Positions 18,921 through 44,813 of a stretch of DNA of 64,000 nucleotides are shown in pieces. The notes beneath the pieces are model-generated. The model worked only from the letters and a program-made list of their open reading frames with translations. It ran no database searches and was not told the DNA's origin. The first letter of the stretch is position 1. Each line of letters opens with the position of its first letter. Origin of the DNA: Candidatus Magasanikiibacteriota bacterium (lineage in GTDB: Bacteria > Patescibacteriota > Patescibacteriia > Magasanikbacterales > GWA2-37-8); assembly GCA_030650025.1 (NCBI GenBank), contig JAUSEN010000009.1:93144-157143 (forward strand), read 5' to 3'. The translations under genes were made by a program, and so were the position numbers.

Positions 18921-21298
18921 TGATCAATTTCTCTCAAGAACTTAACCCCGAACAACTTCGGGTCGTTACCGAGGGCGACGGCCCTTGTTTAGTTTTGGCC
19001 GGGGCCGGCTCGGGCAAAACCCGTACCATCACCTATCGCGTCGCGCATCTTCTAGAACAGGGAATAAAACCTGAAGAAATTCTCCTCGTTACCTTTACCA
19101 ACAAAGCCGCGGCCGAAATGAAACGGCGGGTAGAGCAAATTACAGCGTTGTCATCCCGAGCGGAGCCGAGGGATCCCTCCGCTCGCTCGCTACACTCGCT
19201 CGGTCGGGATGACAGTGTGGTTTTACCCTGGTCCGGCACGTTCCATTCGATCGGTTATCGGCTACTACGAATGTATGGTGGATTATTAGGTTATAAAAAT
19301 AATAATGCCCTGAACCGGAGCGGAGCGACTGGTTCGGGGTTTACGGTTTTAGACAGCGACGATTCAGAGTCGCTTATTAAACTTTGTATTAAAGACGTGA
19401 AAAGCGACGAAGCTGGGAAACGTTTTCCGTCCGCGGCGGTGGTAGCCGCGGTTATTAGTTTTAGCCGCAACGCCGAAATTTCTATTCAAGAAATTTTGGC
19501 CAAACGGTTTGAACAATGGCAAGCTTTCGAAAGTGAGATTTTAACAATTAGCAATTTATATATTGGCAAGAAAATGGCCGCGAATGCCCTGGACTTTGAC
19601 GATTTGCTCACTAAGACTCTCGCCCTTGTAAAAATGCCTCAAATCAAGCAAAAATATTCCGAGCAATTTAAGTATATTTTAGTGGACGAATACCAAGATA
19701 CTAATAGAATTCAGGCCGCGCTTATCAAAGAATTATCCGGCGTTCATAATAATGTGCTAGTGGTGGGGGACGATGCCCAGAGTATTTATAGCTTTCGCGC
19801 CGCGGATATCGAGAATATTTTAGGGTTTGAAAAAGAATACCCGGGAGCCAAAATTTTTAAACTTGAAACTAATTATCGCTCCACTAAACCAATTTTAGAC
19901 GTGGCGAATTCTGTTATCGAGAATAACGTTGACCAGTATCAGAAAAATTTACGAGTAGTCATAGACCCCCTCCTAAAAAGGAGGGGGCAGGGGGAGGTGT
20001 CGCCCTTACCAGTTCTTCAACCCGCTGTTGATTCCTCTGGCGAAGCCATGTTTATCGCCAATAAAATCGAGGATCTATTAAACAAAAAAACTGCGGCGCC
20101 CGAAATCGCGGTTTTATTCCGCGCCGCGTTTCACTCGCAGGCCTTAGAAGTTGAACTGGTGAGTAGAGGCATAGATTATGACTATCGTGGCGGCGTGCGC
20201 TTTTTTGAGCGCGCCCACGTGAAAGATATTTTGTGTTATCTCCGGATTTTTAATAATTTAGCGGACACGGCCGCGTGGCTACGCGTTCTGACGCACGAAG
20301 AAGGCATCGGCCCCGCGGCGGCGGAAAAAATTATTGAAGCGGTGCGCCCGCTGTCTGTCATCCCCGCGGAAGCGGGGATCCAAAACGTTGACACGGCAGA
20401 TTCCCGCTTACGCGGGAATGACAACGTTGATCAAGTCGAATCAATCGGCCGTTCCGTTCTCACCGGCCGCGCTCTTGGGGGTTTTGAAAATTTTTTACAA
20501 ATTTGGAATGTAATGTTGGGTTGTAGGGGCGCGGTTTCCGCGCCCCAGGGCGGGGCAACCCCGCCCCTACGCCCGCGACCAAATGAACTCGTGCTTGCGA
20601 TTTTAAAATCTCCATACCAAGAATATTTAGAATCCGAATACGTAGACAGCAAAGATCGTCAGCAAGATTTGCTCCAGCTCGCCGAGTTTGCCAAGCGCTT
20701 TGACAATTTAGAAGAATTTTTAGCTTCGGCCACGCTCCAAGAATCGTTTCGGACGATCGACACCTCCCCCAGCCCCTCCTTTGCTAAGGAGGGGGGCCGC
20801 GATTCCTCTCCCCTTAGCAAAGGGGAGGGCGACCCGCCCGAATCGCTACGCGAAGCGTTGCGGGCGGGGGGTGGGGTTTCGCATCGATCTAGAATCATTC
20901 TCTCCACCATCCACCAAGCCAAGGGCCTAGAGTGGGAGGCGGTGTTTGTGATGAATCTATCCGCCGGCGCTTTCCCCAACGACCGCGCCAGCCGCGAAGA
21001 TAAAGGGTTAGAAGAAGAGCGCCGGCTTTTTTACGTGGCAGTAACGCGCGCGAAAAAATATTTGTATTTAACCTACCCCATGGCGGGCGGCAGTTTTGGC
21101 GACTTTCTCTCTGGGCCAAGTATTTTTATTAACGAAATCAAGCCCGGCCTAGTTGAGGACCATTCGCTGTTGTTAAAAGGCTCTTCGGTTTTTAATTCTG
21201 GTGAATTAACATATGTCAGCGAAGAGGATGAGCCCTTTTCTAGTAAACCAATTAAAATTAAGCCCGGTAGTTTGCTTAGAAACATCGAAGATCTTTAA
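18920..21298 (+). CDS. uvrD: UvrD/PcrA-family ATP-dependent DNA helicase with five in-frame palindromic-element insertions
   Basis: A 792 aa ORF with Walker A AGAGSGKTRTIT, motif Ia WSGTFHSIGYRLL, motif II DEYQDTN and C-terminal VAVTRAKKYLYL. The insertion positions are listed as separate repeats. Confidence 0.9.
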   Translation: MINFSQELNPEQLRVVTEGDGPCLVLAGAGSGKTRTITYRVAHLLEQGIKPEEILLVTFTNKAAAEMKRRVEQITALSSRAEPRDPSARSLHSLGRDDSVVLPWSGTFHSIGYRLLRMYGGLLGYKNNNALNRSGATGSGFTVLDSDDSESLIKLCIKDVKSDEAGKRFPSAAVVAAVISFSRNAEISIQEILAKRFEQWQAFESEILTISNLYIGKKMAANALDFDDLLTKTLALVKMPQIKQKYSEQFKYILVDEYQDTNRIQAALIKELSGVHNNVLVVGDDAQSIYSFRAADIENILGFEKEYPGAKIFKLETNYRSTKPILDVANSVIENNVDQYQKNLRVVIDPLLKRRGQGEVSPLPVLQPAVDSSGEAMFIANKIEDLLNKKTAAPEIAVLFRAAFHSQALEVELVSRGIDYDYRGGVRFFERAHVKDILCYLRIFNNLADTAAWLRVLTHEEGIGPAAAEKIIEAVRPLSVIPAEAGIQNVDTADSRLRGNDNVDQVESIGRSVLTGRALGGFENFLQIWNVMLGCRGAVSAPQGGATPPLRPRPNELVLAILKSPYQEYLESEYVDSKDRQQDLLQLAEFAKRFDNLEEFLASATLQESFRTIDTSPSPSFAKEGGRDSSPLSKGEGDPPESLREALRAGGGVSHRSRIILSTIHQAKGLEWEAVFVMNLSAGAFPNDRASREDKGLEEERRLFYVAVTRAKKYLYLTYPMAGGSFGDFLSGPSIFINEIKPGLVEDHSLLLKGSSVFNSGELTYVSEEDEPFSSKPIKIKPGSLLRNIEDL
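19149..19214. repeat. TGTCAT...ATGACA element (66 nt) in frame within uvrD between motifs I and Ia
   Basis: tgtcatcccgagcg ... cgctcggtcgggatgaca forms terminal inverted repeats. It encodes about 22 extra residues (SSRAEPRDPSARSLHSLGRDDS) relative to UvrD homologues. Confidence 0.75.
19966..20005. repeat. mini GC-rich hairpin element (ccccctcctaaaaaggaggggg plus tail) in frame within uvrD
   Basis: It resembles the first hairpin and the 3' tail of the 115-nt tri-hairpin element. Confidence 0.6.
20356..20423. repeat. TGTCAT...ATGACA element, CCCGCG subtype (copy B3), in frame within uvrD
   Basis: tgtcatccccgcggaagcggggatc ... gattcccgcttacgcgggaatgaca has the same architecture as the intergenic copies at 6925 and 42756. 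Confidence 0.8.
20523..20570. repeat. GTAGGG...CCCTAC composite palindrome in frame within uvrD
   Basis: gtaggggcgcggtttccgcgcccc-agggcggggcaaccccgcccctac shows nested hairpins. Its ends match the intergenic palindromes at 8123 and 30770. Confidence 0.7.
20764..20882. repeat. GC-rich tri-hairpin element copy C2, in frame within uvrD
   Basis: Near-identical to the copy at 16211..16332 in tgt and in the same plus-strand orientation. It is therefore translated in the forward frame here and in the reverse-complement frame in tgt. Confidence 0.85.
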
Positions 21299-31479: not shown

Positions 31480-31569
31480 TGTCATTCTGAGGTCGCCTAA
31501 GGCGACCGAAGAATCTAAGCGTAAAAACCCTTAAAATAACTCAGATCTTTCGCTACGCTCAAGATGACA
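31480..31569. repeat. TGTCATTCTGAG...CTCAAGATGACA intergenic palindromic element (copy A1)
   Basis: A 90 nt element with an internal extra hairpin ggtcgcctaaggcgacc, lying between rpsJ and rplC. Confidence 0.8.
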
Positions 31570-31595
31570 AAAAACGCGACTGGCGTTTTGTAAGG

Positions 31596-31645
31596 CTAGA
31601 AGCGCGGGTACTAAAATTTTTTAGTATGAGCGCTTCTAGTTTTTT
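31596..31645 (+). terminator. long hairpin ctagaagcgc-N24-gcgcttctag plus TTTTTTG in the rplC leader
   Basis: A 10-bp outer stem plus an inner palindrome tactaaaa-tt-ttttagta. It may act as an attenuator before rplC. Confidence 0.5.
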
Positions 31646-31678
31646 GTTCGGGAAACAAAAAAATAAAGGGAAAAGATT

Positions 31679-32416
31679 ATGAAGTTTATTTTAGGCAAAA
31701 AAATTGGCATGACTCAAGTTTTCCGCCCCTCGGGAGAGATGGTGCCGGTTACTCGTGTATTAGCAGGTCCTTGCCAGGTTGTGCAAATTAAAGACGGCTC
31801 CAAAGAAGGTTCCAAAGATAATCAAACCGCTTTGCAAATTGGTTTTGGCGTCAAACGCGCTTTCCGGGTAAAAAAACCAGAGCAAGGCCATTTGAAAGAT
31901 TTAGAACTCTCCGCATTTTTAACAGATTTTGCCGTGGAAAAAGTTGCGGGCGTCGCGCGCGGCGATTTAATTTTGGTAGATACTTTTGCGGTTGGTGATA
32001 TTGCGAATGTGGTAGGCGTCAGCAAAGGCAAAGGTTTTGCCGGGGTGGTTAAACGCCACCATTTTAGAGGCGCTCCCAAGAGCCACGGCCACAAGCACGA
32101 TTTGCGCGCTCCGGGGAGTATTGGCGCCGGCGGCGTTCAGCGCGTTTTTAAAGGCATGCGCATGGCTGGCCGCATGGGCGGCGATCGCGTCACTGTTAAA
32201 AATCTGGAAATTGTCGAGATTCACCCCGAGACTAACGAACTTTATATTAAAGGCGCTGTTCCCGGCGGTCGCAATGCGATTTTACAAATTCTCGCCCCTG
32301 GCGAATTAAAAATTACCAAACCAAACCCAGCCAAGGGCTCGGAAGTGGCTCTGTCCGAAGAGGTGGTTATTCCCGTTATTGATAGTGTGCCTGCTCCGGC
32401 CGCGGCCACTGTTTAA
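31679..32416 (+). CDS. rplC: 50S ribosomal protein L3
   Basis: Canonical L3. Confidence 0.95.
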   Translation: MKFILGKKIGMTQVFRPSGEMVPVTRVLAGPCQVVQIKDGSKEGSKDNQTALQIGFGVKRAFRVKKPEQGHLKDLELSAFLTDFAVEKVAGVARGDLILVDTFAVGDIANVVGVSKGKGFAGVVKRHHFRGAPKSHGHKHDLRAPGSIGAGGVQRVFKGMRMAGRMGGDRVTVKNLEIVEIHPETNELYIKGAVPGGRNAILQILAPGELKITKPNPAKGSEVALSEEVVIPVIDSVPAPAAATV

Positions 32417-32424
32417 TTGAACAT

Positions 32425-33054
32425 ATGCAGTTAAAAGTTTATACCAAGCAAGGCCAAGAAGCGAGCAAGCTGGAAGTAGCGGACGCGGTTTTTGGCGTTA
32501 AAATTAAACCGGCTCTGGTCCACGAAGTTTTTGTCGCTCAAACCAACAACCAGCGTGAGCCCTGGGCCGCCACCAAAACTCGCGGTGATGTTAGGGGCGG
32601 TGGTAAAAAACCTTGGAAGCAAAAAGGCACTGGCCGCGCTCGCCACGGTTCAACGCGTTCCCCAATTTGGGTCGGTGGCGGCGTTACCATGGGCCCTAAA
32701 GCCGACCGTTCTTACAAATCCAAAATTAATAAAACCGCGCGCCGCCTGGCTACCAAAATGTGTCTGTCGGACAAAGTCAAAAACGAGGCGTTTTATGTAA
32801 TTGACCAGTTTGATTTCGCGGCGCCCAAAACCAAATTATTTGTCGCTTTAATCAAAGCTTTGCCCACGAATAAACATTCTTTCTTAATTTTAACCGACGG
32901 CAAAGACGAAAACGTCATTCGCCAAACTAAGAATTTGCCAAAAATCACCACGGTCCGCGCTGAAGATGTGAGTGTGATGGATTTAGTTAAGAAACAAGTA
33001 GTGGTGGCGAGCGTGGACGCTGTTAAGCGCCTGGAAAAATTATTTGTAAAATAA
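32425..33054 (+). CDS. rplD: 50S ribosomal protein L4
   Basis: Canonical L4. Confidence 0.95.
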
Positions 33055-33055
33055 T

Positions 33056-33505
33056 ATGGGGTTACTTGATCGCTGGAGCAAAAAAATTACCTCTGCCAAG
33101 CTTAAAAATAACGACGATAAGTCCGCTCCGGTTAAGGCTGCCCTCAAGTCTGCCACAGCTGAAACCAAAACAGAAAATAAAGGCGAAACCAAAGTAACCG
33201 CTGTTAGCAAAACCACCGCCTCTAAGCATTTTAATATTGTCATTCGCCCTTTGGTTACCGAGAAGTCAGCGCGGGCGGAATCGGTTCGTAAATATACTTT
33301 TATAGTGGCGGCCTCGGCCAACAAGACTGAAGTTAAAAATGCCGTAAAAAACATGTATGGTGTCTTGCCCGTATCGGTAAATATCGTTAATGTTCAAGGT
33401 AAAAATATTCGTTTTGGGAAGAGCCGCGGCCGCCGCTCGGATTTTAAAAAAGCGATTGTCACTTTGCCTAAAGGAGAGAAGCTGACAGTACATGAGGGTG
33501 TTTAG
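33056..33505 (+). CDS. rplW: 50S ribosomal protein L23 with Lys/Ala/Thr-rich N-terminal extension of about 55 aa
   Basis: The L23 core begins at HFNIVIRPLVTEKS. Confidence 0.9.
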   Translation: MGLLDRWSKKITSAKLKNNDDKSAPVKAALKSATAETKTENKGETKVTAVSKTTASKHFNIVIRPLVTEKSARAESVRKYTFIVAASANKTEVKNAVKNMYGVLPVSVNIVNVQGKNIRFGKSRGRRSDFKKAIVTLPKGEKLTVHEGV

Positions 33506-33528
33506 TTACTAGAGTCTAAAGTCCAATT

Positions 33529-34377
33529 ATGCCGATTAAAGTTTACAAACCAACCAGCCCGGGCCGCCGTAAATCGAGCGTTGATTCGTTTTCTGATATT
33601 ACCAAATTTAAACCCGAAAAGAGTTTAATCACGATTTTAAAGAAAAATTCCGGGCGCAATAACCAGGGCCGCATTACCGTGCGCCATCAGGGGGGCGGCG
33701 CCAAAAAAATGTACCGCTTGGTGGATTTTAAACAACAGAAATTTAATATTTCCGCCACAGTTGAAGCCATTGAATATGACCCTAACCGCGGCGCGCGCAT
33801 CGCTTTAGTTAAATATACCGATAACGCCAAGGCTTACTTGCTTGCCCCCGAAGGCATCGCGGTCGGCGCTAAAGTCATGTCTTCCGAGCAGACGATTGAA
33901 GCCAAAACCGGCAACCGTATGCCTCTCGAGTTTATTCCCGGTGGCTTGTTCATTTTCAATATCGAACTGACTCCCGGCAAGGGCGGCCAAATTGTGCGCG
34001 GCGCCGGCCTCTCGGCCCAGCTCCTTGGAGTAGAGGGAAAATATGCTAATGTAAAATTACCGAGTGGCGAAATTCGCATGATTCTTAAAGAATGCGCCGC
34101 GACTATCGGCGTCCTTTCCAATCCGGACCGCCGCCTCATTCGCTGGGGCAAAGCCGGGCGCATGCGCCACCGCGGCATTAAACCTACCGTTAAAGGTAAA
34201 AATATGAACCCGGTGGACCACCCGCACGGTGGCGGCGAAGGCCACAGCCCCATTGGCCAAAAGCGCGGCGCCATGACTGTTTATGGCAAAAAGGCGCGCG
34301 GCATTAAGACCCGTAAACCTCAAAAATGGAGCAATAAGTTTATTATTCAGCCGCGTAAAGGCAAGTTAAGCGCCTAA
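33529..34377 (+). CDS. rplB: 50S ribosomal protein L2
   Basis: Canonical L2. Confidence 0.95.
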   Translation: MPIKVYKPTSPGRRKSSVDSFSDITKFKPEKSLITILKKNSGRNNQGRITVRHQGGGAKKMYRLVDFKQQKFNISATVEAIEYDPNRGARIALVKYTDNAKAYLLAPEGIAVGAKVMSSEQTIEAKTGNRMPLEFIPGGLFIFNIELTPGKGGQIVRGAGLSAQLLGVEGKYANVKLPSGEIRMILKECAATIGVLSNPDRRLIRWGKAGRMRHRGIKPTVKGKNMNPVDHPHGGGEGHSPIGQKRGAMTVYGKKARGIKTRKPQKWSNKFIIQPRKGKLSA

Positions 34378-34387
34378 TTAATCATTT

Positions 34388-34723
34388 ATGTCTAGAAGTT
34401 TGAAAAAAGGTTTGTATGTTGATGAGCGCATCTTAAAAAAAGTTGCGGCTTTAAAAGCGCAGGGTAAACGCACGCCGATTAAAACCTGGATCCGCGCTTG
34501 TGTTATTTCTCCGGAAATGGTTGGCTACACTTTTCAAGTGCACAATGGCAAACTATTTATTGATGTTTTAGCCGAAGAAAATATGGTGGGGCATCGCTTG
34601 GGTGAATATTCGCCGACGCGCAAATTTGTCCGCCATGGCGGTAAGATGCAAAAAGAAATCGAAGCCAAAGCCTCTGGCTCGGCCGTTCCGGCCTCGGCTG
34701 CCGCTCCCGCTAAAAAAAAATAG
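34388..34723 (+). CDS. rpsS: 30S ribosomal protein S19 (Ala-rich C-terminal tail)
   Basis: Canonical S19. Confidence 0.95.
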
Positions 34724-34744
34724 TCTAAATTCGAAATTAATTAT

Positions 34745-35125
34745 ATGATCAGTGTCACTGCCAAATTACGTTACTACCGAATGGGCCCGCGCAAAATGCG
34801 CCTCTTGGCCGATGTTATTCGTGGTCGCGATGTGGCCCGTGCCGAATCCGCTCTGTCGGTTTTAAATAAAAAAGGCTCTCCGGTACTGATCAAGCTATTG
34901 CGCTCGGCAGTGGCGAATGCTAAAAATAATCATAATTTAGATACTAATCTGCTCCGCGTCGCGTCCCTGACTGTGGACGGCGGCCCCAGCCTAAAGCGCT
35001 GGCTGCCGCGCGCCCATGGCCGCGCCACTCCTATCCGCGAGCGCACTTGCCATGTCACTTTAACTTTAGCGCCTTTTGAAAAGAAAACTAAAGTTAAAGT
35101 AAAAAAAGATAACAAAATTTCATAA
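34745..35125 (+). CDS. rplV: 50S ribosomal protein L22
   Basis: Canonical L22. Confidence 0.95.
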   Translation: MISVTAKLRYYRMGPRKMRLLADVIRGRDVARAESALSVLNKKGSPVLIKLLRSAVANAKNNHNLDTNLLRVASLTVDGGPSLKRWLPRAHGRATPIRERTCHVTLTLAPFEKKTKVKVKKDNKIS

Positions 35126-35146
35126 ATAAAAAAAATTTTCCAAATC

Positions 35147-35226
35147 TGTCATTCTGAGCGAAGCGAAGAATCTAAGCGCTTACAACGCTTAATCAACTTA
35201 GATCTTTCGCTGCGCTCAAGATGACA
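35147..35226. repeat. TGTCATTCTGAGCGAAGCGAAGAATC...GATCTTTCGCTGCGCTCAAGATGACA element (copy A2)
   Basis: An 80 nt element between rplV and rpsC. Its terminal ATGACA provides the spurious track start of rpsC. Confidence 0.85.
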
Positions 35227-35244
35227 AATACGAAGCAACATTTT

Positions 35245-35997
35245 ATGGGTCACAAAGTCCATCCAAAAATTCATCGCACGCCAGCCATCTTCCCTTGGGA
35301 TTCTCGCTGGTACGCCAAAAAGGAATTATATCCCGAATTTTTAGAGCAGGAAATCGCTATCCGCGAACTGCTGGGGAAGAAGCTGAAAGACGCCGGGCTC
35401 GACGCTATTAGCGTTGAACGCAGCCCCAAAGAAATGGTGATAACTATTTTGGCGGCTAAACCCGGCGCGGTTATTGGCCGCGGCGGCTCCGGGCTCGAGG
35501 ACATTCGTAAAATAATTGAGCGTAAGATTTTAAAATTTAAAATCAAAGTTAAGTTAAATATTCAGGCTGTCGCCCAGCCCGCTCTGTCCGCCGCTATTGT
35601 GGCGCAAGCCTGCGCCGCCGAAATCGAGCGCCGCTTGCCCTTTCGCCGCGTGATGAAGCAAGCCATTGAAAAAACTATGTCCGCCGGGGCGCAGGGTGTC
35701 AAAATTAACATGTCGGGCCGCCTCAACGGCGCCGAAATCGCGCGCACCGAAAAACTAGGTTCTGGTAAAATGTCCCTTATCACCGTGCGTAGCCATGTGG
35801 ATTACGCTTTAGCCGAAGCCCAGACTTTGCAAGGTAAAATTGGCGTTAAAGTTTGGATTTATAAGGGCGAAGTTTTTGGTAAATACGATAAATTTGAAAA
35901 ACAAGCCGAGCCTACCCACCAGAACCACTCTAGTCAGCGCCCCGCGCCCCGCGCCCCCTCCCGACCGGCTACTGCCCCCGCGCGGCCGATTAAATAA
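35245..35997 (+). CDS. rpsC: 30S ribosomal protein S3
   Basis: MGHKVHPKIHR is the canonical S3 start. The track start at 35221 lies inside the repeat. Confidence 0.9.
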   Translation: MGHKVHPKIHRTPAIFPWDSRWYAKKELYPEFLEQEIAIRELLGKKLKDAGLDAISVERSPKEMVITILAAKPGAVIGRGGSGLEDIRKIIERKILKFKIKVKLNIQAVAQPALSAAIVAQACAAEIERRLPFRRVMKQAIEKTMSAGAQGVKINMSGRLNGAEIARTEKLGSGKMSLITVRSHVDYALAEAQTLQGKIGVKVWIYKGEVFGKYDKFEKQAEPTHQNHSSQRPAPRAPSRPATAPARPIK

Positions 35998-36003
35998 TAT
36001 ATT

Positions 36004-36420
36004 ATGCTGTTACCTAAAAAAGTAAAACACCGTAAATGGCATAAAGGGCGCCGCCGCAACCTGGGCGTCGCGACGCGTGCTACCAAACTTTCTTTTGGCG
36101 ACTATGGTTTGAAATCCGAGACCCACGGCTGGGTTACCAGCCGCCAAATTGAAGCCGCCCGTAAAGTTTTAACGCGCTATGTTCGCCGCGGTGGTAAAGT
36201 CTGGATCCGTATTTTTCCGGACAAGCCAGTTACTAAAAAAGGTAACGAAGTACCGATGGGCGGCGGCAAAGGCGCTCCCGATCACTATGTAGCCGTAATC
36301 AAGCCAGGCACTGTCATGTTTGAGATGGTGGGAGTGCCAGAGAGTGAAGCCAAAGAAGCTTTGGCTATGGCCGGCTACAAGTTCGGCGTTCAAACCAGAT
36401 TTGTGCAAAAATTAGTCTAA
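36004..36420 (+). CDS. rplP: 50S ribosomal protein L16
   Basis: Canonical L16. Confidence 0.95.
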
Positions 36421-36430
36421 ATATTTTGGT

Positions 36431-36622
36431 ATGGACCTAAAAGATTTAAAAGCTGTTAATACTGATGAATTGAAAAATCTGCTCCAAGAGAAGCGGCTCG
36501 CTTTACATGGCTTAAAGCAAAAGTCCAAGAGCCGCACTTTAAAACAAGTACATTTGCCCAAAACCACCCGCCGCACTGTTGCTCGTATTTTAACCATTTT
36601 AAAAGATCGCCAGCCCGTTTAA
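36431..36622 (+). CDS. rpmC: 50S ribosomal protein L29
   Basis: Canonical L29. Confidence 0.9.
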   Translation: MDLKDLKAVNTDELKNLLQEKRLALHGLKQKSKSRTLKQVHLPKTTRRTVARILTILKDRQPV

Positions 36623-36626
36623 TTAT

Positions 36627-36896
36627 ATGACTACTACGCAACCAGCCAACTCAACTAAAAATTTGCGCGCTTTTTCCGGCACGGTTATTTCTGCCGCTAT
36701 GGCCAAAACTATCGTGGTTCGGGTCGATCGTTTTAAACTCCACCCCAAATACCAAAAGCGTTATAAAGTTTCCGGCAAATACCATGTTCACGACGAGAAG
36801 AATACCGCCCAAGTAGGGGATACAGTAAAAATTGTAGCCTGCCGCCCTATGAGCAAAACCAAGCGCTGGCGTTTAGCTGCCGTTGTCCAAAAATAA
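36627..36896 (+). CDS. rpsQ: 30S ribosomal protein S17
   Basis: Canonical S17. Confidence 0.95.
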
Positions 36897-36897
36897 T

Positions 36898-37269
36898 ATG
36901 ATCCAACATCGTTCCATGATCAAAGTCGCGGATAATACCGGAGCCAAAAAGCTCCAGTGTATTCGCGTCTTAGGGGGCTACAAAAAACGCTATGCTCGCC
37001 TTGGTGACGTTATTACCTGCGTGGTTAAAGAAGCGGCGCCGCGCGGTTTAGTTAAAAAAAGCGATATCGTGCACGCGGTTTTGGTTCGTATTCATAAAGA
37101 AACCCGCCGCGTTGACGGCACCTATATTCGTTTCGATGAAAATGCCGCTGTAATTATTGACCGGGCCAGCAAAGAACCCAAGGGCACTCGTATTTTTGGT
37201 CCGATCGCGCGCGAGCTGCGCAGTATGGGTTTTCAAAAAATAATTTCTTTAGCGCCTGAAGTAGTATGA
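36898..37269 (+). CDS. rplN: 50S ribosomal protein L14
   Basis: [18 protein letters not shown]. The true start is the internal Met of the track ORF. Confidence 0.95.
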
Positions 37270-37580
37270 AATTAAAGACCAACGACAATGTAAAAATTTT
37301 AAGCGGCAAGGACCGTGGCAAAACCGGCAAGATTATTCAGGTTTTTTCCGCCGAAGGCAAAATCGTAGTGGAAGGCGTTAATAAAATCAAGCGCCATCTT
37401 AAAGCTAAAGGCCAGGGCCAAAGCCAAAAAGGCCAGGTTTTAGAACTCTCGGCCCCTATTCCAGCTTCGCGCGTAGCTTTAATCTGTCCCAAGTGTAGTC
37501 AACCAATTCGAGTTGGCTACAAAACCGAAGCGGGCGTAAAAAAGCGCGTTTGCCGTAAATGTAAAGAATATGTCGACTAA
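37266..37580 (+). CDS. rplX: 50S ribosomal protein L24
   Basis: Canonical L24. Confidence 0.95.
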
Positions 37581-37593
37581 CCCTAGGGTCAAT

Positions 37594-38148
37594 ATGGAAT
37601 CCTTATATCAAATCTATTTAAAAACAGTGGTGCCTAAACTCAAGACTGAACTGGGCTATAAAAATGTTATGCAAGTTCCGCGCGTCACTAAAGTGGTGCT
37701 CAACGCTGGTATCGGCCGTTTTATAAAAGACGCTGGTTTTATTGAAACTGTCGAAACCACCCTGTCGCGCATTACCGGCCAAAAGCCAGTGCGCACCAAA
37801 TCCAAGAAGTCAATTTCCAACTTTAAAATTCGCGAAGGCCAGGAAATTGGCGTCATGGTCACTCTGCGCGGCAAACGCATGTACCAATTTTTAGAAAAAT
37901 TAGTCCGGGTTACTTTCCCGCGGGTACGCGATTTTCGTGGTATCCCGAGCACGGCTTTTGACCGTCAAGGCAATTACACGATTGGATTTAAAGAGCATAT
38001 TGCCTTTCCCGAAGTTAAGACCGAAGAAATTGACAAGATCCACGGCCTCCAGGTTATTATCGGCACCACGGCAAAAAATCAGGAGCAAGGCCGCGCGCTC
38101 CTTAAAGCCCTGGGTTTTCCCTTTGCAAACAGTCTTAAAAAATCTTAA
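37594..38148 (+). CDS. rplE: 50S ribosomal protein L5
   Basis: The probable start is MESLYQIY. The track ORF starts 24 nt earlier. Confidence 0.9.
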   Translation: MESLYQIYLKTVVPKLKTELGYKNVMQVPRVTKVVLNAGIGRFIKDAGFIETVETTLSRITGQKPVRTKSKKSISNFKIREGQEIGVMVTLRGKRMYQFLEKLVRVTFPRVRDFRGIPSTAFDRQGNYTIGFKEHIAFPEVKTEEIDKIHGLQVIIGTTAKNQEQGRALLKALGFPFANSLKKS

Positions 38149-38165
38149 AACCACCGCAATAATCT

Positions 38166-38351
38166 ATGGCTACTTGGGCACAAATCAGTAAATCTGCTCG
38201 CAAACCAAAATTTTCTACCCGCCTCGTGCGCCGTTGTTGGCGTTGTGGTCGCGTCCGCGGGTATATGCGCCGTTTTAAATTGTGCCGCATCTGTTTCCGC
38301 GAACTGGCCAATGATGGCAAGATCCCCGGAGTCAGGAAAAGTAGCTGGTAA
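38166..38351 (+). CDS. rpsN: 30S ribosomal protein S14 type Z (zinc-binding)
   Basis: A 61 aa ORF with CWRCGR...CRICFRE. Confidence 0.9.
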
Positions 38352-38387
38352 TCCGCTTAATATAAAATATTTTCTGAAAACTAACGT

Positions 38388-38777
38388 ATGATGACAGATC
38401 CAATTGCCGACATGCTCACCCGAATCCGCAACGCGGTGGGGGTCAAGAAGAGCGCCGTCACAATTCCTTATTCTAAGCTGAAGAAGTCCATCGGCGAAAT
38501 TTTGGTGCGCGAGGGCTATGTCGCTAAAATCGAAGAAGCCAAGACCCCGAGCCATGTTTTGGTTGTGACCCTTAAGTATAACGGCCCCTCTGGCGCGGTG
38601 CAAAGTTTAAAACGTATCAGCCGCCCGGGTAGCCGCCGCTACGTTAAAAAAGATGATATCGAGAGGGTGCTCAATGGGCTGGGGCTCGCGATTCTTTCCA
38701 CGCCCCGCGGCGTCATGACTGATAGCGACGCTATCAAGGCTGGGGTTGGCGGCGAGCTCCTCTGTGAAATTTACTAA
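38388..38777 (+). CDS. rpsH: 30S ribosomal protein S8
   Basis: Canonical S8. Confidence 0.95.
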   Translation: MMTDPIADMLTRIRNAVGVKKSAVTIPYSKLKKSIGEILVREGYVAKIEEAKTPSHVLVVTLKYNGPSGAVQSLKRISRPGSRRYVKKDDIERVLNGLGLAILSTPRGVMTDSDAIKAGVGGELLCEIY

Positions 38778-38789
38778 CGAACAAACAAT

Positions 38790-39338
38790 ATGTCCCGCAT
38801 TGGTAAAAAAATTCGCAATTTCCCCGCTACCGTTTCTGCTGAAGTGAAAAACGGTGAGCTGGTGATTAAGGGCCCAAAAGGCGAACTTAAGCAACGCCTG
38901 CACCCGCATGTTTCGGTTGTTATTCAAAACAATGCTATTGAGGTTAAGGTAGCGAGCGAGGCGGCCAAACGAGACCGAGCCATTTGGGGTACTTTTTCTA
39001 GCCTTATCAACAACATGATTGTGGGCGTTACGGATGGTTTTAAAAAACAGCTCGAAATTAACGGGGTTGGCTACAAAGCTAATCTCAAAGGCGCTGCTTT
39101 AGTTTTAGAAGTGGGTTTTACGCATTCGGTTACTATAGAGCCAGCTTCCGGTATCAAATTTTCTGTTGAGAAAAATCTTATTACCGTGGAGGGTATCGAC
39201 AAACATATGGTCGGCGAAATGGCCGCGCAAATCCGCAAAGTAAAACCGCCGGAGCCTTACAAGGGAAAAGGCATTAAATATATTGACGAAATAATCCACC
39301 GCAAGGCTGGTAAAACTGCCGCCAAAGCCGCGGCCTAA
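38790..39338 (+). CDS. rplF: 50S ribosomal protein L6
   Basis: Canonical L6. Confidence 0.95.
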   Translation: MSRIGKKIRNFPATVSAEVKNGELVIKGPKGELKQRLHPHVSVVIQNNAIEVKVASEAAKRDRAIWGTFSSLINNMIVGVTDGFKKQLEINGVGYKANLKGAALVLEVGFTHSVTIEPASGIKFSVEKNLITVEGIDKHMVGEMAAQIRKVKPPEPYKGKGIKYIDEIIHRKAGKTAAKAAA

Positions 39339-39352
39339 AATAGTATTATTCT

Positions 39353-39727
39353 ATGAAACGCCTCATCATCAATAACAAAAATTCTCGCCGTCAGGTTCGG
39401 CACGCCCGCATCCGCCGGGCGCTGAAAGGCTCCGCGGCTCTGCCGCGCCTTTCCGTTTGGCGCGGGCTTCGTTCCACCACCGCCCAAATCATTGATGACT
39501 CCAGCCACCAGACTTTGGTTTATGTTTCAAGCCGCTCGGTTAAAGCTCCAGTCAGTAAAGACAAAACCATCAAAGTAGCTCTAGCTTATGCCGTCGGTGA
39601 GAAGTTAGCCGCCGCCGCGCTTGAGAAAAGCATTACTAAAGTCGTATTTGATCGGGGAGGTTACAGATATCATGGCCGCGTTCAGGCCTTGGCCGAGGGC
39701 GCTCGCGCCGGCGGTCTCAAGTTTTAA
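39353..39727 (+). CDS. rplR: 50S ribosomal protein L18
   Basis: Canonical L18. Confidence 0.95.
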   Translation: MKRLIINNKNSRRQVRHARIRRALKGSAALPRLSVWRGLRSTTAQIIDDSSHQTLVYVSSRSVKAPVSKDKTIKVALAYAVGEKLAAAALEKSITKVVFDRGGYRYHGRVQALAEGARAGGLKF

Positions 39728-39739
39728 TATTGATTTTTT

Positions 39740-40291
39740 ATGGATAAAAATTTTTCCAAACGCCGCTCGGATAAACCGCGCGAACGGCCAGAGTTTGACC
39801 AAGAGATTTTAGATCTCGCCCGCGTCACACGCGTTACTAAAGGCGGCAAACAATTAAGCTTTCGCGCTTGCGTGATTTTGGGCGATCGCCATGGTAGAGT
39901 GGGCTTAGGTTTAGCCAAAGGTAAAGATGTGCAAAAGGCGGTTGATAAATCCGTGCGCCAAGCTAAAAAGAACATGATTAAAGTGCCAATCGTTAAGGAA
40001 ACTATTCCGCACCATGTCGTAATAAAGTTTAAAGCCACCGCCATCATGTTGAAACCAGCCCCGCGCGGCTCTGGTATTATCGCGGGTGGCGCGGCGCGCG
40101 CCGTGCTCGAGCTCGCGGGCGTTCCGAATGTCTCTTCCAAAATTTTAGGTAAAACTAAAAATAAAATCGTCGTGGCTAAAGCGACCATGGCGGCGCTTGC
40201 CAGTTTTAAGCGTGGCCGCACTGTTAAACAATCGTTTCAGGCTCCGGTTGCGCCCCTAGTTTCAGAAATTAACGCCATTACCGCTGTTTAA
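39740..40291 (+). CDS. rpsE: 30S ribosomal protein S5
   Basis: Canonical S5. It is followed directly by rplO with no L30 gene. Confidence 0.95.
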   Translation: MDKNFSKRRSDKPRERPEFDQEILDLARVTRVTKGGKQLSFRACVILGDRHGRVGLGLAKGKDVQKAVDKSVRQAKKNMIKVPIVKETIPHHVVIKFKATAIMLKPAPRGSGIIAGGAARAVLELAGVPNVSSKILGKTKNKIVVAKATMAALASFKRGRTVKQSFQAPVAPLVSEINAITAV

Positions 40292-40299
40292 TTATTTAT

Positions 40300-40737
40300 A
40301 TGCTCCAAGCTCATACTTTAAAACCAAAACACGGCTCTAAACATCGCGCTAAAGTAGTTGGCCGCGGCAATGCTTCGGGCCACGGCACTATGTCCACCCG
40401 GGGTGGCAAAGGCCAAACCGCTCGTTCCGGCGGATCCGCGGGTCTGCGTACTAAAGCCTTCAAACAAATGATGCAGTCCGTGCCTAAACTGCGCGGTTTT
40501 CACACGCAATTTGTCAAACCGAGCGAAGTTTATCTTTCTGATCTAGACAAGCATTTTGCATCTGGCGATATTGTTACTCTCGCTACTCTCAAAGCCAAAA
40601 ATATTATTAACAACACTGCCAAGCAAGCCAAGGTAGTGCAAACCGGCGAATTGAAGAAAAATTTAACTATTCAAGGGCTCTTGGCCACCCCAGGCGCCGC
40701 GGCTAAGATTAAAGCCGCCGGTGGTGAACTTAAATAA
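40300..40737 (+). CDS. rplO: 50S ribosomal protein L15
   Basis: Canonical L15. Confidence 0.95.
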   Translation: MLQAHTLKPKHGSKHRAKVVGRGNASGHGTMSTRGGKGQTARSGGSAGLRTKAFKQMMQSVPKLRGFHTQFVKPSEVYLSDLDKHFASGDIVTLATLKAKNIINNTAKQAKVVQTGELKKNLTIQGLLATPGAAAKIKAAGGELK

Positions 40738-40750
40738 TTATTTTTAATGC

Positions 40751-40830
40751 TGTCATTCTGAGCGAAGCGAAGAATCTAAGCGTCTCAACGCTTATAACCA
40801 CTTAGATCTTTCGCTTCGCTCAAGATGACA
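40751..40830. repeat. TGTCATTCTGAGCGAAGCGAAGAATC...GATCTTTCGCTTCGCTCAAGATGACA element (copy A3)
   Basis: An 80 nt element between rplO and secY, about 90% identical to copy A2. Confidence 0.85.
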
Positions 40831-40837
40831 TATTCAT

Positions 40838-42112
40838 ATGTGGGAGCGTTTTGTAAGGGTTTGGAAAATTAAGGACATTCGCAATAACCTATTATTTGTC
40901 ATTGCTCTTTTGGTTATTTTTCGTTTAGTGGCGCACATTCCTATTCCGGGCGTTAATATTGGCAACCTCCGAAATTATCTCGCCGGTAATCAAATCCTCG
41001 GCCTCTTGAATGTTTTCTCCGGTGGCACTCTGCAAAATTTTTCCATTGTCATGCTCGGCGTCGGCCCTTATATTACCTCTTCCATCATCTTCCAGCTTTT
41101 AGCTATGATTGTGCCGAGTCTAGAGGAGTTGTCTAAAGAAGGCGAGAGCGGCCAGCAAAAAATCAGCCTTTATACTCGCTGGCTCGCGGTACCATTGGCT
41201 TTTTTGCAGTCCTTTGCCATGATCAAGTTACTGAATCAGTCCGGCGCCGCGATTTTGAGCAACCTCACCCCGTTTCGCACCATTGCCATCATGTTCACTA
41301 TCTCGGCTGGCACCATGTTTTTAATGTGGATTGGCGAATTAATTTCCGAAAAAAAGGTGGGTAATGGCGTTTCCCTCTTAATCTTTGCCGGTATCGTGGC
41401 GGCTTTGCCCGGGAGCGTGCGCAATCTTTTAGTTAACTATGACCCTTCGCAATTATACACGTACGTTATGTTTATTGCCGTCGCTGTTCTTACGGTTGTT
41501 GGTGTGGTTTTTATCAACGAGGGCCAGCGCAACATCCCCGTATCTTATGCCAAGCAGGTGCGCGGCAATCGCATTTACGGCGGCACGAGCACGCACTTGC
41601 CCCTACGCGTTAACATGGCTGGCGTTATTCCCATCATCTTCGCGGTTTCGCTCATCCTTTTTCCTTCCATGATCGCGCAATTTTTTGTCACGGCGCGTTC
41701 GGCTTGGATGGCGGGTTTTGCCTCCGGCACTATTAGACTTTTCCAAAATCAATATTTTTACAACACTTTGTATTTCTTGTTAGTTTGCGGTTTTACTTAC
41801 TTCTACACCGCGGTTGTTTTCCAACCTCAAAAAATGGCCGAGAATCTCCAAAAGCAGGGAGGCTTTATTCCTGGCATTCGCCCGGGCAAAGAAACCGAAG
41901 GCTACCTGGCCTCAACCATGAATCGCCTTAATTTTACCGGCGCTATGTTTCTGGGTGTAATCGCGGTTTTGCCGCTACTCGTCGGCAGTCTGACTGGCAC
42001 GCAATCTCTTCAAATTGGCGGCACTAGCATTTTAATCGTAGTCGCTGTCGCCATTGAAACCGCCAAACAAATCGAGTCCCAGCTTACCATGCACGAATAC
42101 GATTCAGTTTAG
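40838..42112 (+). CDS. secY: preprotein translocase subunit SecY
   Basis: A 424 aa polytopic protein with the SecY signature. Confidence 0.95.
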   Translation: MWERFVRVWKIKDIRNNLLFVIALLVIFRLVAHIPIPGVNIGNLRNYLAGNQILGLLNVFSGGTLQNFSIVMLGVGPYITSSIIFQLLAMIVPSLEELSKEGESGQQKISLYTRWLAVPLAFLQSFAMIKLLNQSGAAILSNLTPFRTIAIMFTISAGTMFLMWIGELISEKKVGNGVSLLIFAGIVAALPGSVRNLLVNYDPSQLYTYVMFIAVAVLTVVGVVFINEGQRNIPVSYAKQVRGNRIYGGTSTHLPLRVNMAGVIPIIFAVSLILFPSMIAQFFVTARSAWMAGFASGTIRLFQNQYFYNTLYFLLVCGFTYFYTAVVFQPQKMAENLQKQGGFIPGIRPGKETEGYLASTMNRLNFTGAMFLGVIAVLPLLVGSLTGTQSLQIGGTSILIVVAVAIETAKQIESQLTMHEYDSV

Positions 42113-42154
42113 GCTCTTGACATTGCCCTCGGTGTGTAGCTATACTTAAAGTGT

Positions 42155-42322
42155 ATGAACGAAGACTTAGTTTTAAACAAATTGTTAGAGCACGATAAAC
42201 GGTTTGAGCGTCTGGACAATAAAGTAGATGGTACGATGACCAAAGAAGATGGGCAAAGAATAATGAGCACGCTTGAGCAGGTGGTAGTAATAGTGAAAAA
42301 AATCCAACTGCAAATGGCGTAA
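42155..42322 (+). CDS. unannotated small ORF (55 aa) with consensus promoter TTGACA-18-TATACT (42117..42146) and terminator (42343..42371)
   Basis: MNEDLVLNKLLEHDKRFERLDNKVDGT... is a leaderless-type start, followed by the hairpin atggctagtttagccat plus a T-run. It falls below the ORF-track cutoff. Confidence 0.4.
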   Translation: MNEDLVLNKLLEHDKRFERLDNKVDGTMTKEDGQRIMSTLEQVVVIVKKIQLQMA

Positions 42323-42461
42323 GCAGTCAAGTACGTTTCTACAATGGCTAGTTTAGCCATTTTTTGTTATAAAAACCAAAATTATTAAACCTGTTTTTTG
42401 TTTGCCAAATTAAAAAAAATTTGCTAAGATTACACTGTTCATTATTTAATTTGCCGTAAAT

Positions 42462-42752
42462 ATGGGCTTTTTTTCCTCTGTCAAATACTCTACTGTCGAG
42501 CATTATTTAACCGAGCACGACGTTAAACGTGTAATTACGTATATCAAAATCCCAACCTTGGCTAGTCACCCGGAGCGCGACCGGTTGATTCAGGATGCTA
42601 TTTTAGGGCGTCGCCGCGGTGATGGCAAAATTTCGCTTCAGCAAATCTACGATGTTTTAACAAGTTTAAAAAATGCTAATCAGATAACTAAATACGATCG
42701 CGCTGAAGTAATGAAAGAGATGAAATTGTTTTATGAACAGAAAGATGCATAA
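42462..42752 (+). CDS. hypothetical protein
   Basis: A 96 aa ORF with a TTGCCA-17-TAAGAT promoter upstream. Confidence 0.4.
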   Translation: MGFFSSVKYSTVEHYLTEHDVKRVITYIKIPTLASHPERDRLIQDAILGRRRGDGKISLQQIYDVLTSLKNANQITKYDRAEVMKEMKLFYEQKDA

Positions 42753-42755
42753 TTT

Positions 42756-42824
42756 TGTCATTCCCGCGCCAGCGGGAATCTAGTTTTTTTAAAACGCTGG
42801 ATCCGCGCTGGCGCGGGGATGACA
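42756..42824. repeat. TGTCATTCCCGCG...GGGGATGACA element (copy B2)
   Basis: It lies between the hypothetical ORF and adk. The track start of adk (42819) lies inside the repeat. Confidence 0.8.
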
Positions 42825-42839
42825 GCAAAGCATAGGATC

Positions 42840-43499
42840 ATGAAAAAAATTATTATTTTACTGGGGCCACCGGGGAGCGGCAAAGGCACCCAGGCCAAAA
42901 TTATCGCCACCAATCATAGTTACGGTCATATTTCCACCGGTGATTTATTGCGCGCGCTTTCTACTCGCCACGACCTCGATGCCGATGAAACTAAAGCGCT
43001 ACGCGAAATGTCTTTCGGGCGCTTGGTCCCGGATTGGCTTATTTATAAACTCGCTTTTGCCGCCGCCGACCAATATTTAAATAATAATCAGGGTGTAGTT
43101 TTCGACGGCGCCATTCGCAACATTTCGCAGGCTCAAGTTTACCAAGAATATTTTTTTGGCAAAAATTTAGCAACCGAAGTTTTGGCGCTGGAGGTCTCTT
43201 TACCAGATGCCCAATCATTTTTGCGCCTTACCGAGCGGAAAATTTGCCGGAATTGCGGAGCGATTTTTGCGCTAGCCAGCGCGCCCGGCGGCCTCTGTGC
43301 TAATTGCGGCGGCGCGTTAATTAGCCGCGCTGATGATAATATCGACGTCGTTAAAAAACGCATTCAGGAACAAGGTAATGCCGCCCTTGAACCGCTCCGT
43401 GAGTTTTATAAAAATCAGAATGCCTACAGCGCAGTGGACGGCCGCGCTACAGTTGATGATGTTAGCCGCCAGATCGAAACGGTTTTGGCGGCTACCTAA
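42840..43499 (+). CDS. adk: adenylate kinase (zinc-lid type)
   Basis: MKKIIILLGPPGSGKGTQ plus a CRNCG...CANCG lid. Confidence 0.9.
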   Translation: MKKIIILLGPPGSGKGTQAKIIATNHSYGHISTGDLLRALSTRHDLDADETKALREMSFGRLVPDWLIYKLAFAAADQYLNNNQGVVFDGAIRNISQAQVYQEYFFGKNLATEVLALEVSLPDAQSFLRLTERKICRNCGAIFALASAPGGLCANCGGALISRADDNIDVVKKRIQEQGNAALEPLREFYKNQNAYSAVDGRATVDDVSRQIETVLAAT

Positions 43500-43502
43500 A
43501 TT

Positions 43503-44324
43503 ATGCTTATCAAATCACCAATCGATCTAAAAAATTTAAAAACCAGCGGCCAGTTAATGGGCAAAGTTCTGGAGCAACTCTCGGCTTTTTGTAAAATAGG
43601 CATGACTACGGCCGCTCTCGATGCTGAAGCGGAGCGTTTAATTTTGGCTTGCGGCGGGAGCCCGGCCTTTAAAGGCTATCATACCGGCGCCGCTCCGGCG
43701 CCCTTTCCCGCTTCAGTTTGTGTCTCCCTCAATGATGAATTGGTTCACGGTATTCCGAGTCGTGAGCGAATAATCAAAGTTGGCGACGTCGTGAGCCTAG
43801 ACATTGGCATGAAATGGGCTCCTAAAAAAATTATTTCCCGTAAAAAAAATATTGATTCTGGCGTATTTACCGATACCGCTGTCACGTTTATAATGGGTAA
43901 ACCAAAATCAGAAGCTGTTAAATTACTGGACGTTACCCGCCAGTCTCTGGAAGCAGGCATCAAGGCCGCGCAGCCCGGCTCTAGTGTCGCCGCCATCGGT
44001 AAAGCCGTGGAGTCTTATGTAAAATCCCAAGGCAATTATGGAATCGTCCGCGATTTAGTTGGCCACGGCGTGGGCCACGCTGTCCACGAAGAGCCGTATA
44101 TCCCGAATTATTACGATCCCAGTTTAGAAAATATTAAACTTGTCCCGGGCATGGTGATCGCGATTGAACCCATGATCGCGCTTGGCGACTGGCGGGTGGT
44201 TACCAAACCCGACGGTTGGACTATTAAGATGAAGGACAATTCACTCTGCGCGCATTTCGAACACACACTAATTATTACAAATAAAGGAAATATTGTAGTA
44301 ACACGCCGCCCAGAAGAAAAATAA
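43503..44324 (+). CDS. map: type I methionine aminopeptidase
   Basis: A pita-bread fold with metal ligands in the region VGHGVGHAVHEEP. Confidence 0.9.
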   Translation: MLIKSPIDLKNLKTSGQLMGKVLEQLSAFCKIGMTTAALDAEAERLILACGGSPAFKGYHTGAAPAPFPASVCVSLNDELVHGIPSRERIIKVGDVVSLDIGMKWAPKKIISRKKNIDSGVFTDTAVTFIMGKPKSEAVKLLDVTRQSLEAGIKAAQPGSSVAAIGKAVESYVKSQGNYGIVRDLVGHGVGHAVHEEPYIPNYYDPSLENIKLVPGMVIAIEPMIALGDWRVVTKPDGWTIKMKDNSLCAHFEHTLIITNKGNIVVTRRPEEK

Positions 44325-44336
44325 CGCCGCGCTTCT

Positions 44337-44726
44337 ATGAAAATTCTCGCCGTTGATTTTGGACAAAAACGCCTCGGCCTCGCTTTTAGCGACATTAATT
44401 TAGATATGGTATTGCCGTTTGGTTTGGTAGTCAAGCGTACTCTTACCGCCCAAGTCAGAGAATTGGCCGCGCTGATTAATAAAGAGGGGGTTAAGCAGGT
44501 GGTGGTGGGGTTTCCGGTTTCTCAAAATGGCCAGGAAAACAAAAACACCGAGCGCGTTAAACAATTCGTTTATGAACTGGGCAAATTAATAGCAGTGCCG
44601 ATTGCATATTTTGACGAACGTTTTACCTCGCAGGCCGCTGATGCCATGGGTGGTAATGTGACGCGGGACGAAAAATCCGCCATGCAAATTTTGGAAGGGT
44701 ACTTGATAAGAAATAAAAAAACATAA
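44337..44726 (+). CDS. ruvX: Holliday-junction resolvase-like RuvX/YqgF
   Basis: MKILAVDFGQKRLGLAFSD. Confidence 0.85.
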   Translation: MKILAVDFGQKRLGLAFSDINLDMVLPFGLVVKRTLTAQVRELAALINKEGVKQVVVGFPVSQNGQENKNTERVKQFVYELGKLIAVPIAYFDERFTSQAADAMGGNVTRDEKSAMQILEGYLIRNKKT

Positions 44727-44728
44727 GA

Positions 44729-44813
44729 CGTCATTGCGAGGAGCGTAGCGACGAAGCAATCTTTCACTAGTCATGAGATCGCCACGACTCGCTTTGCGGG
44801 TCTCGCGATGACA
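44729..44813. repeat. degenerate TGTCAT...ATGACA element (copy A4)
   Basis: cgtcattgcgaggagcgtagcgacgaagcaatc ... ctcgcgatgaca, lying between ruvX and recO. Confidence 0.6.

Follow-up and report, generated by a model that had tools for sequence, protein, structure and literature searches.

Paired CGTC/TGTC-tagged hairpin repeats in the ribosomal-protein superoperon of a Candidatus Magasanikbacteria genome, probable selfish elements of the SRM/NTS kind

The ribosomal-protein superoperon of a Candidatus Magasanikbacteria genome (phylum Patescibacteria, Candidate Phyla Radiation) contains in its spacers elements of the form TGTCAT...ATGACA, and their presence between genes of such a cluster raises the question of what they are and how they came to be there. 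We analyzed a 64-kb stretch of DNA that includes this operon (the window), in which a pair scan and a structural arm finder identified eight such elements of 65-90 nt each. Six of them occupy spacers flanked by co-directional genes; the other two are in frame within uvrD. The elements are probably non-autonomous selfish repeats, head-to-head dimers of CGTC/TGTC-tagged hairpins of the kind known as SRM and NTS, probably mobilized by a nuclease of the Ssn family.

The single arm is the conserved unit

The arm finder (pattern: GTCAT, a palindrome of at least 5 bp beginning at AT, then ATC) detected 15 arms in the window, compared to 2.06 in shuffled sequences (shuffle maximum 6), and missed a sixteenth arm (42800-42824), which contains a mismatch. 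All 16 arms follow the plan (C/T)GTC-AT-stem-loop-AT-C, with an unpaired tag at the 5' side and a C directly after the stem, and all are paired with their tags outside (8/8 elements), each element consisting of two inverted arms and the short spacer that separates them. The tag is TGTC in seven doublets and CGTC in the doublet at 44729..44813. Repeat finders also recovered the elements and a CCCGCG subtype (families D2, D10, D12 and D19; inverted pairs I1-I3). The four elements named in an earlier note on this DNA, those at 31480, 35147, 40751 and 44729, are present where it placed them, and the doublet at 19149-19214 was absent from its list.

Three doublets carry what may be called the operon-type arm, AT-TCT-GA-GCGAAGC-GA-AGA-AT. 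They are found in the rpsJ-rplC spacer (31480..31569; left arm 31480-31515, right arm 31544-31569), the rplV-rpsC spacer (35147..35226; arms 35147-35172 on the plus strand and 35201-35226 on the minus strand, separated by 28 nt) and the rplO-secY spacer (40751..40830; arms 40751-40776, plus, and 40805-40830, minus). The GCGAAGC-type arm is formed by five Watson-Crick pairs, two G-A/A-G mismatches, a 2-bp GC stem and a 3-nt loop, the last two making up a GC-GAA-GC mini-hairpin; there are nine stem positions in all, two of them being the G-A mismatches, and some arms have longer inner hairpins. The three copies had been described as near-identical, but that at 31480-31569 is only 78-81% identical to the other two. 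In its left arm a larger inner hairpin, GTCGCCTAAGGCGAC, substitutes for GCGAAGC. The hairpin of the arm is kept (z -5.1), but the replacement abolishes pairing between the arms, so that the long stem does not form and the arms fold separately.

The CCCGCG-type arm, ATTCCCGC-GAAA-GCGGGAAT, is the dRS3/NTS sequence, with a stem of 8 bp and a 4-nt loop of the GAAA type. Doublets of this type are located between dut (6489-6914, minus strand) and a kinase-like gene (7023-7571, minus strand) at 6925..6991, in the hyp-adk spacer at 42756..42824, and in frame inside uvrD at 20356..20423, where the translation reads ...SVIPAEAGIQNVDTADSRLRGNDN...; the two spacers and uvrD are the places to which this subtype had previously been assigned. 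The arm of the 6925 element folds on its own as single-stranded DNA (z -5.2). The second doublet inside uvrD (19149..19214; 66 nt) reads ...LSSRAEPRDPSARSLHSLGRDDS... and has a central GATC common to both arms. The doublet in the ruvX-recO spacer (44729..44813; arms 44729-44761, plus, and 44777-44813, minus) had been regarded as a degenerate copy. With its CGTC tag and its stems ATTGC/GCAAT and ATCGC/GCGAT, it represents a different subfamily rather than a decayed member of the first.

As RNA, the elements that form the long stem have one of 25-30 bp. The 35147 element folds at -34 kcal/mol (z -6.05) and the 40751 element at -40.1 kcal/mol (z -9.35), and the CCCGCG-type elements have z values between -6.7 and -10.6, the lowest being that of the 42756 element. 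A stem of about 25 bp was thus correctly proposed for most copies, but not for that at 31480. The pairing that has been maintained is a different one. In the three operon copies the left arms contain ATTCT/AGAAT and the right arms ATCTT/AAGAT, which is a double compensatory change within the arm and leaves a G-U pair and a mismatch in the long stem. The same was seen on a larger scale when covariation was examined, as the earlier note had proposed, over loci fetched from other genomes. Adjacent arms in these loci were arranged with tags outside in 196 cases, with tags inside in 54 and in tandem in 37. Of the 164 distinct doublets, whose spacers have a median length of 26 nt, 89 differ between their two arms in the outer-stem triplets. 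Within arms, by comparison, 218 of 241 non-query arms pair at all three variable outer-stem positions, with about 5% expected by chance, and at least nine complementary triplet types occur (TCT/AGA, CCT/AGG, TCC/GGA, GCT/AGC, TTC/GAA, CTT/AAG, GTT/AAC, CCC/GGG and CTC/GAG). The inner part of the arm is always a hairpin with a free loop base. This intra-arm covariation identifies the arm, and not the inter-arm stem, as the conserved structure.

Presence and absence among relatives

The syntenic operons were compared in two relatives with 79-81% identical SecY (L004 and L006) and in a third relative (L002), and the presence of the elements was found to vary. In both L004 and L006 the rplV-rpsC and rplO-secY spacers are element-free and 1-13 nt long (1-3 nt for rplV-rpsC), and the rpsJ-rplC element, which would fall between conserved blocks, is absent. 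The ruvX-recO spacer of L004 is empty, with a length of 1 nt, and that of L006 contains a doublet of a different subtype. In L002, TGTCAT...ATGACA elements occupy other spacers of this cluster, at least eight in number. According to the earlier note, the copies would be unremarkable if they proved to be coding sequence in orthologues or were confined to the operon; neither is the case. In a short-read assembly of the same strain, one contig begins within the 40751 element and stops within the 42756 element, and these breaks were counted as multi-copy behavior.

The uvrD copies were examined by aligning the window protein to PcrA and eight orthologues. The window UvrD has 792 residues, compared to 670-700 in most orthologues, and contains lineage-specific inserts at six sites, two of which are the TGTCAT doublets. 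The 19149 doublet aligns to gaps relative to PcrA and is absent from four of the eight orthologues, while the 20356 doublet is located at a break in the PcrA alignment, in a loop where four of the eight have nothing. Other doublet subtypes occupy this loop in two orthologues, P0245 (VILNGAERSEES...RSFANTQDD) and P0244 (...ISHSVRNDN). Because the same surface loops hold different inserts in different orthologues, they look like hot spots for insertion or places where elements replace one another.

Several further palindromes were noted in the same gene and elsewhere in the window. The uvrD reading frame (18920-21298) runs through six palindromic inserts (19149-19214, 19308-19342, 19966-20005, 20356-20423, 20523-20570 and 20766-20882), and the protein is about 100 residues longer than most orthologues. 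The last of these is a GC-rich composite palindrome that recurs at 16201-16332 in tgt (minus strand), in frame in both genes and with a 92-nt core that is 92% identical; tgt and uvrD (plus strand) have opposite orientations, and the same DNA is therefore translated from both strands, as PPSPLRRGGESSSPLLCKGGGEGE in Tgt and SPSPSFAKEGGRDSSPLSKGEGDPPE in UvrD. Perfect or near-perfect palindromes with a GTAG tag, TTGTAGGG...CCCTACAA, which belong to the other REP superfamily, are located at 8121-8153, 20523-20570 and 30766-30801. The last, located between tuf and rpsJ, precedes a T run and has a terminator-like score. At 8231-8305 (minus strand) there is a weak, sub-threshold Rfam match to tmRNA (22.8 bits, compared to the required 47) and to a tRNA-like element; ARAGORN reported no tmRNA.

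The rpsJ-rplC spacer is long (260-400 nt) in three genomes: 31282-31678 in the window, 867-1191 in L004 and 907-1169 in L006. It contains a conserved promoter-like block, GCTTGACA...AGTAAACTG, directly after rpsJ, and a conserved hairpin with a T run directly before rplC (window 31596-31639, CTAGAAGCGC...GCGCTTCTAGTTTTTTG). These blocks may act as a leader or attenuator for the L3-L4 genes. In the ribosomal cluster of L002 almost all spacers are expanded, and two further, unrelated inverted-repeat families are present there, a ATCCGAATCTACGAAT-type of about 120 nt and a GCTTGGAAAGCCTGGGAAGC-type of about 80-97 nt (coordinates 1133-1257, 2110-2234, 4660-4786 and 9354-9473; 13050-13146 and 13801-13882).

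Identification of the neighboring genes as those for S10, L3, L22, S3, L15, SecY, adenylate kinase, dUTPase, RuvX, RecO, a UvrD-like helicase and Tgt agreed with the rpsJ-rplC, rplV-rpsC, rplO-secY and ruvX-recO positions given to the elements before; the neighbor of dut at 7023-7571 (minus strand) is a P-loop nucleotide-kinase-like open reading frame (ORF). It had also been suspected that the terminal ATGACA creates false starts for rpsC and adk. The listed ORFs do begin within it, at 35221 and 42819, respectively, and the profile matches begin later, that of rpsC at residue 9 and that of adk at about residues 8-12. For annotation, such elements mean false starts of this kind, extra segments of 20-40 residues in proteins such as UvrD and Tgt, spurious small ORFs and broken short-read assemblies.

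Arms in other genomes and a candidate mobilizer

The arms are not peculiar to this lineage. The 25-mer arm GTCATYCTGAGCGAAGCGAAGRATC was found at 120 or more genome loci from many phyla, those listed among its matches being Acidobacteriota, Nitrospirota, Chloroflexota, Bacteroidota, Bacillota, Cyanobacteriota, Verrucomicrobiota, Planctomycetota, Patescibacteria and others. Viral contigs that contain it number 58, and a 30-mer arm with the TCTAAG extension was matched at 112 metagenome loci.

In seven of the fetched loci (L115, L014, L127, L180, L203, L223 and L288, the last being an IMG/VR contig) an ORF of about 93 residues encoding a GIY-YIG protein (PF01541) is located between or beside such arms. 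The order in L115, a member of the Patescibacteria, is TGTCAT-arm, ORF, arm-ATGACA; L180 and L223 contain the exact 30-nt arm of the window; and in L203 the arm extensions TCTAAAT and ATTTAGA enclose the gene, which is on the other strand. In L180 the GIY-YIG gene (3674-3955) has TGA in place of the conserved Trp of NPxWxDL, and is either a pseudogene or the gene of a host that reads TGA as a sense codon. Tyr7, Tyr18 and Glu65 of the small GIY-YIG protein are spaced as Y6, Y17 and E64 of SsnA. At E below 1e-8, 1,607 relatives of this small protein were found; few of the best 120 carry a named source, and those are mostly groups of the Candidate Phyla Radiation. Among solved structures it matched only a distant UPF0213 protein (1zg2, E 0.001), and no NCBIfam model was found for it. 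Genes for four-helix-bundle or GxxExxY proteins may likewise have such repeats at their flanks.

SsnA, a 94-residue GIY-YIG protein, binds its hairpin, and cuts it a few nucleotides 5' of the motif, solely when the DNA is single-stranded; bases preceding the stem are important for cutting and the C that follows it for binding (Chenal et al. 2025, PMC11893778). The hairpin is the NTS (CGTCATTCCCGCGMAVGCGGGAATCYRG), an extended dRS3, which together with the related SRM hairpins flanks ssnA genes; the NTS-ssnA-NTS layout has been likened to an insertion sequence (PMC11893778). The association of genes with arms, taken together with this biochemistry, leads us to infer that a nuclease of the Ssn family moves the elements through single-stranded DNA. 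The functional unit would be the single arm, a small single-stranded DNA hairpin with an unpaired GTC tag on its 5' side and a C after the stem, and the protein that recognizes and mobilizes it is likely a single-domain GIY-YIG nuclease of about 93 residues, encoded elsewhere and acting in trans. Since an ssn gene lies between the same two arms in other genomes, the 65-90 nt elements look like arm-ssn-arm units without the gene. Copies would survive where they do little harm, that is, in co-directional spacers, even those of the ribosomal-protein superoperon, and in surface loops, where they are translated in frame. Once transcribed, the elements would form long RNA hairpins as a consequence rather than as the reason for their existence, and incidental effects on the mRNA or its processing are possible as by-products.

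Among the fetched loci L008-L297, as judged from crude ORF calls, the GCGAAGC arm between co-directional ORFs lies in sense orientation in 62 cases and in antisense in 31 (p = 0.0017), with a similar bias within long ORFs (63 sense, 28 antisense); in two ribosomal operons all eight asymmetric copies have this arm on the sense strand. A bias of about 2:1 could result from strand-specific insertion and from filtering at the RNA level alike. One alternative is that the elements are selected cis-acting RNA structures of the operon, that is, RNase III or RNase E sites, mRNA stabilizers, or uncouplers or modulators of downstream translation. This explanation is consistent with the sense-strand bias, with their co-transcription with the operon, with the location of all six intergenic copies between co-directional genes and with 25-30 bp RNA stems reaching z -10.6. 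In addition, the expressed small RNAs of Wolbachia include a doublet built in the same way (Rfam RF02625, WsnRNA46), the matches here being sub-threshold. It is opposed by the two close relatives, in which three of the four operon spacers are 1-13 nt long or element-free and the ruvX-recO spacer is empty in one only, by the 31480 copy, which is without the long stem, by the maintenance of pairing within arms when more than half of the doublets are heterodimers, and by the occurrence of the same elements within the uvrD frame and across numerous phyla and unrelated settings. We therefore consider it improbable. Processing or translational-coupling sites, which the earlier note had put forward, have no comparative support, as the relatives run the operon without the elements, and the data do not support an RNA function under selection in the operon. 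Its other proposal, selfish MITE/REP-like DNA, is supported by the absence of the elements from spacers of relatives, their presence inside uvrD and outside the operon, and the arms found in many phyla and beside GIY-YIG genes.

It is also unlikely that the elements are Ssn recognition sites kept by the host, which would restrict or shape incoming single-stranded DNA during natural transformation without being parasites. Bacteria of the Candidate Phyla Radiation commonly have DNA-uptake machinery. The arm sequences are nearly identical to NTS, and in Neisseria meningitidis the NTS/SsnA system lowers the integration of NTS-bearing DNA (PMC11893778). The window is without an ssn gene, however, no site is conserved between close relatives, in which the positions vary, and insertion into the uvrD frame, as into spacers that would otherwise measure only 1-13 nt, has the look of damage that is tolerated rather than of design. 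Mobilization as REPINs or MITEs, by a RAYT/IS200-type tyrosine transposase or a DDE enzyme, is very improbable here, for although the doublet architecture is that of REPINs and GTAG-tagged palindromes are also present in the window (8121-8153, 20523-20570 and 30766-30801), the tag is (C/T)GTC and not GTAG, target-site duplications are lacking, Di Nocera, De Gregorio and Rocco (2013, PMC3733652) did not find CGTC repeats on either side of a transposase gene, and GIY-YIG is the sole gene repeatedly found between such arms (the window was not fully screened for RAYT).

Several observations weigh against mobilization of these repeats by Ssn. No ssn gene was detected by tblastn or the family hidden Markov model in the window or in the syntenic loci of the relatives, and only 7 of about 290 fetched loci have one beside an arm. 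The published SRM expression, HGTCWYN(0-2)YYVSBRHN(0-5)WNVSBRGN(0-2)RNCYNB, matches four of the six CCCGCG-type arms, including both arms of 6925..6991, compared to 0.16 matches expected in the whole window, but does not match any GCGAAGC-type arm, nor the 44729-type arms, in the window. Single GCGAAGC-type arms have no significant stability under nearest-neighbor DNA parameters, and the 2:1 sense-strand bias could reflect selection at the RNA level. No flanking direct repeats, as a target-site duplication would leave, were found at any of the eight copies. When the joined flanks of 188 doublets were searched by BLAST against all fetched loci for exact empty sites, only tandem clusters matched, and flank comparisons do not define an exact excision boundary. 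It should be noted that transposition by Ssn is put forward by Chenal et al. as a hypothesis only and has never been demonstrated (PMC11893778).

On balance, selfish repeats moved by an Ssn-family nuclease remain the probable explanation. A broader proposal is doubtful, and we make it tentatively: GCGAAGC arms and the gene for the GIY-YIG protein of about 93 residues might constitute a mobile element that passes between phyla and is found on viral-class contigs as well, whose gene-less doublets would be moved through single-stranded DNA by the GIY-YIG nuclease acting as a transposase, with strand-biased insertion, and would be tolerated in the ribosomal superoperon and essential genes of very small genomes. 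A GIY-YIG nuclease acting as a transposase, if confirmed, would represent a transposition chemistry so far undemonstrated.

Comparison with known repeats

A self-cleaving ribozyme was considered for the arms, which contain GUC, CUGA and GAA, but by eye they lack the hammerhead core CUGANGA, and Rfam at its gathering score returned no ribozyme or other family, only weak hairpin-like matches at E up to 1. The elements do not resemble intrinsic terminators either, a T run following only one arm (42760-42779), and terminator-like sites in the region number 24, compared to 23.5 expected.

With REPINs and their RAYT genes the window elements share two inverted short palindromic repeats forming a larger hairpin, a non-autonomous nature and a single-copy gene flanked by the same repeats. 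They differ from them in the tag, which is (C/T)GTC rather than GTAG and sets them outside that family, and in the partner gene, which encodes a GIY-YIG nuclease and not an HUH tyrosine transposase. Compared to classical MITEs, they have the inverted termini but flanking direct repeats at none of the eight copies. The consensus of WsnRNA46, UGUCAU...GGAUC...GAUUC...AUGACA, has the same doublet architecture; the 6925 and 42756 elements match it at 37.2 and 37.7 bits (37.2 for the 42756 element), below the gathering score of 65.3. As with Rickettsia palindromic elements (RPEs), which are palindromes inserted in frame without breaking the ORF, the uvrD frame continues through two doublets and four further palindromes. 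Sequence relatedness of the window elements to RPE-4 and RPE-6 is taken from the literature (PMC3733652).

The elements fit closely with the CGTC-tagged REPs (PMC3733652), which are equivalent to dRS3 of Neisseria and RPE-4/-6 of Rickettsia. In these the tag, CGTC with the variants TGTC and CCTC, is unpaired at one end of the stem-loop, and the stem almost invariably opens with complementary A and T at its first and second positions; stems of 8-9 bp and loops of 4-5 nt characterize families 1-4. Dimers with tags outside predominate, their partners being 1-2 bp apart in some families and 20-100 bp in most, and in-frame copies occur in repair genes, including those for UvrD/Rep helicases; Di Nocera et al. 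found no dedicated transposase (PMC3733652). The window elements have the (C/T)GTC tag at the terminus, the AT start of the stem in the 15 detected arms and in that at 42800-42824, head-to-head dimers, co-directional spacers and in-frame copies in uvrD. The median spacer of 26 nt falls within the 20-100 bp range, and the CCCGCG arms show the 8-bp stem and 4-nt loop of family CGTC-1. They differ in that Patescibacteria are not among the five phyla of that study, and in that the GCGAAGC arm, with its G-A mismatches and mini-hairpin, is outside the four described families.

The range of the CGTC-REP and Ssn-motif family is thus extended to the Candidate Phyla Radiation, and a very widespread arm variant is added that escapes the published search motif yet flanks ssn genes. 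The repeat kind itself has already been described. The extensions, namely this arm variant and the colonized ribosomal superoperon, are modest; they add comparative support to the unproven idea that Ssn proteins spread such repeats, and reveal no new kind of system. With the SRM/NTS repeats the agreement reaches the positions that matter to the enzyme. The CCCGCG arms depart from the Neisseria NTS at no more than 1-2 positions, and the bases that are critical for Ssn cleavage and binding, GTC ahead of the stem and C behind it, do not vary here. The differences are the lack of an ssn gene in the window and the position of the GCGAAGC arms outside the published expression; in addition, the main text of PMC11893778 treats the hairpins as single repeats around genes, and searching that text gave no passage on inverted pairs that lack a gene. 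Despite not matching the expression, the GCGAAGC arms share with SRM the tag, the AT start, the 3' C and the kind of gene flanked, and in other genomes arms identical to those of the window flank single-domain GIY-YIG genes of about 93 residues, as NTS and SRM hairpins flank ssnA.

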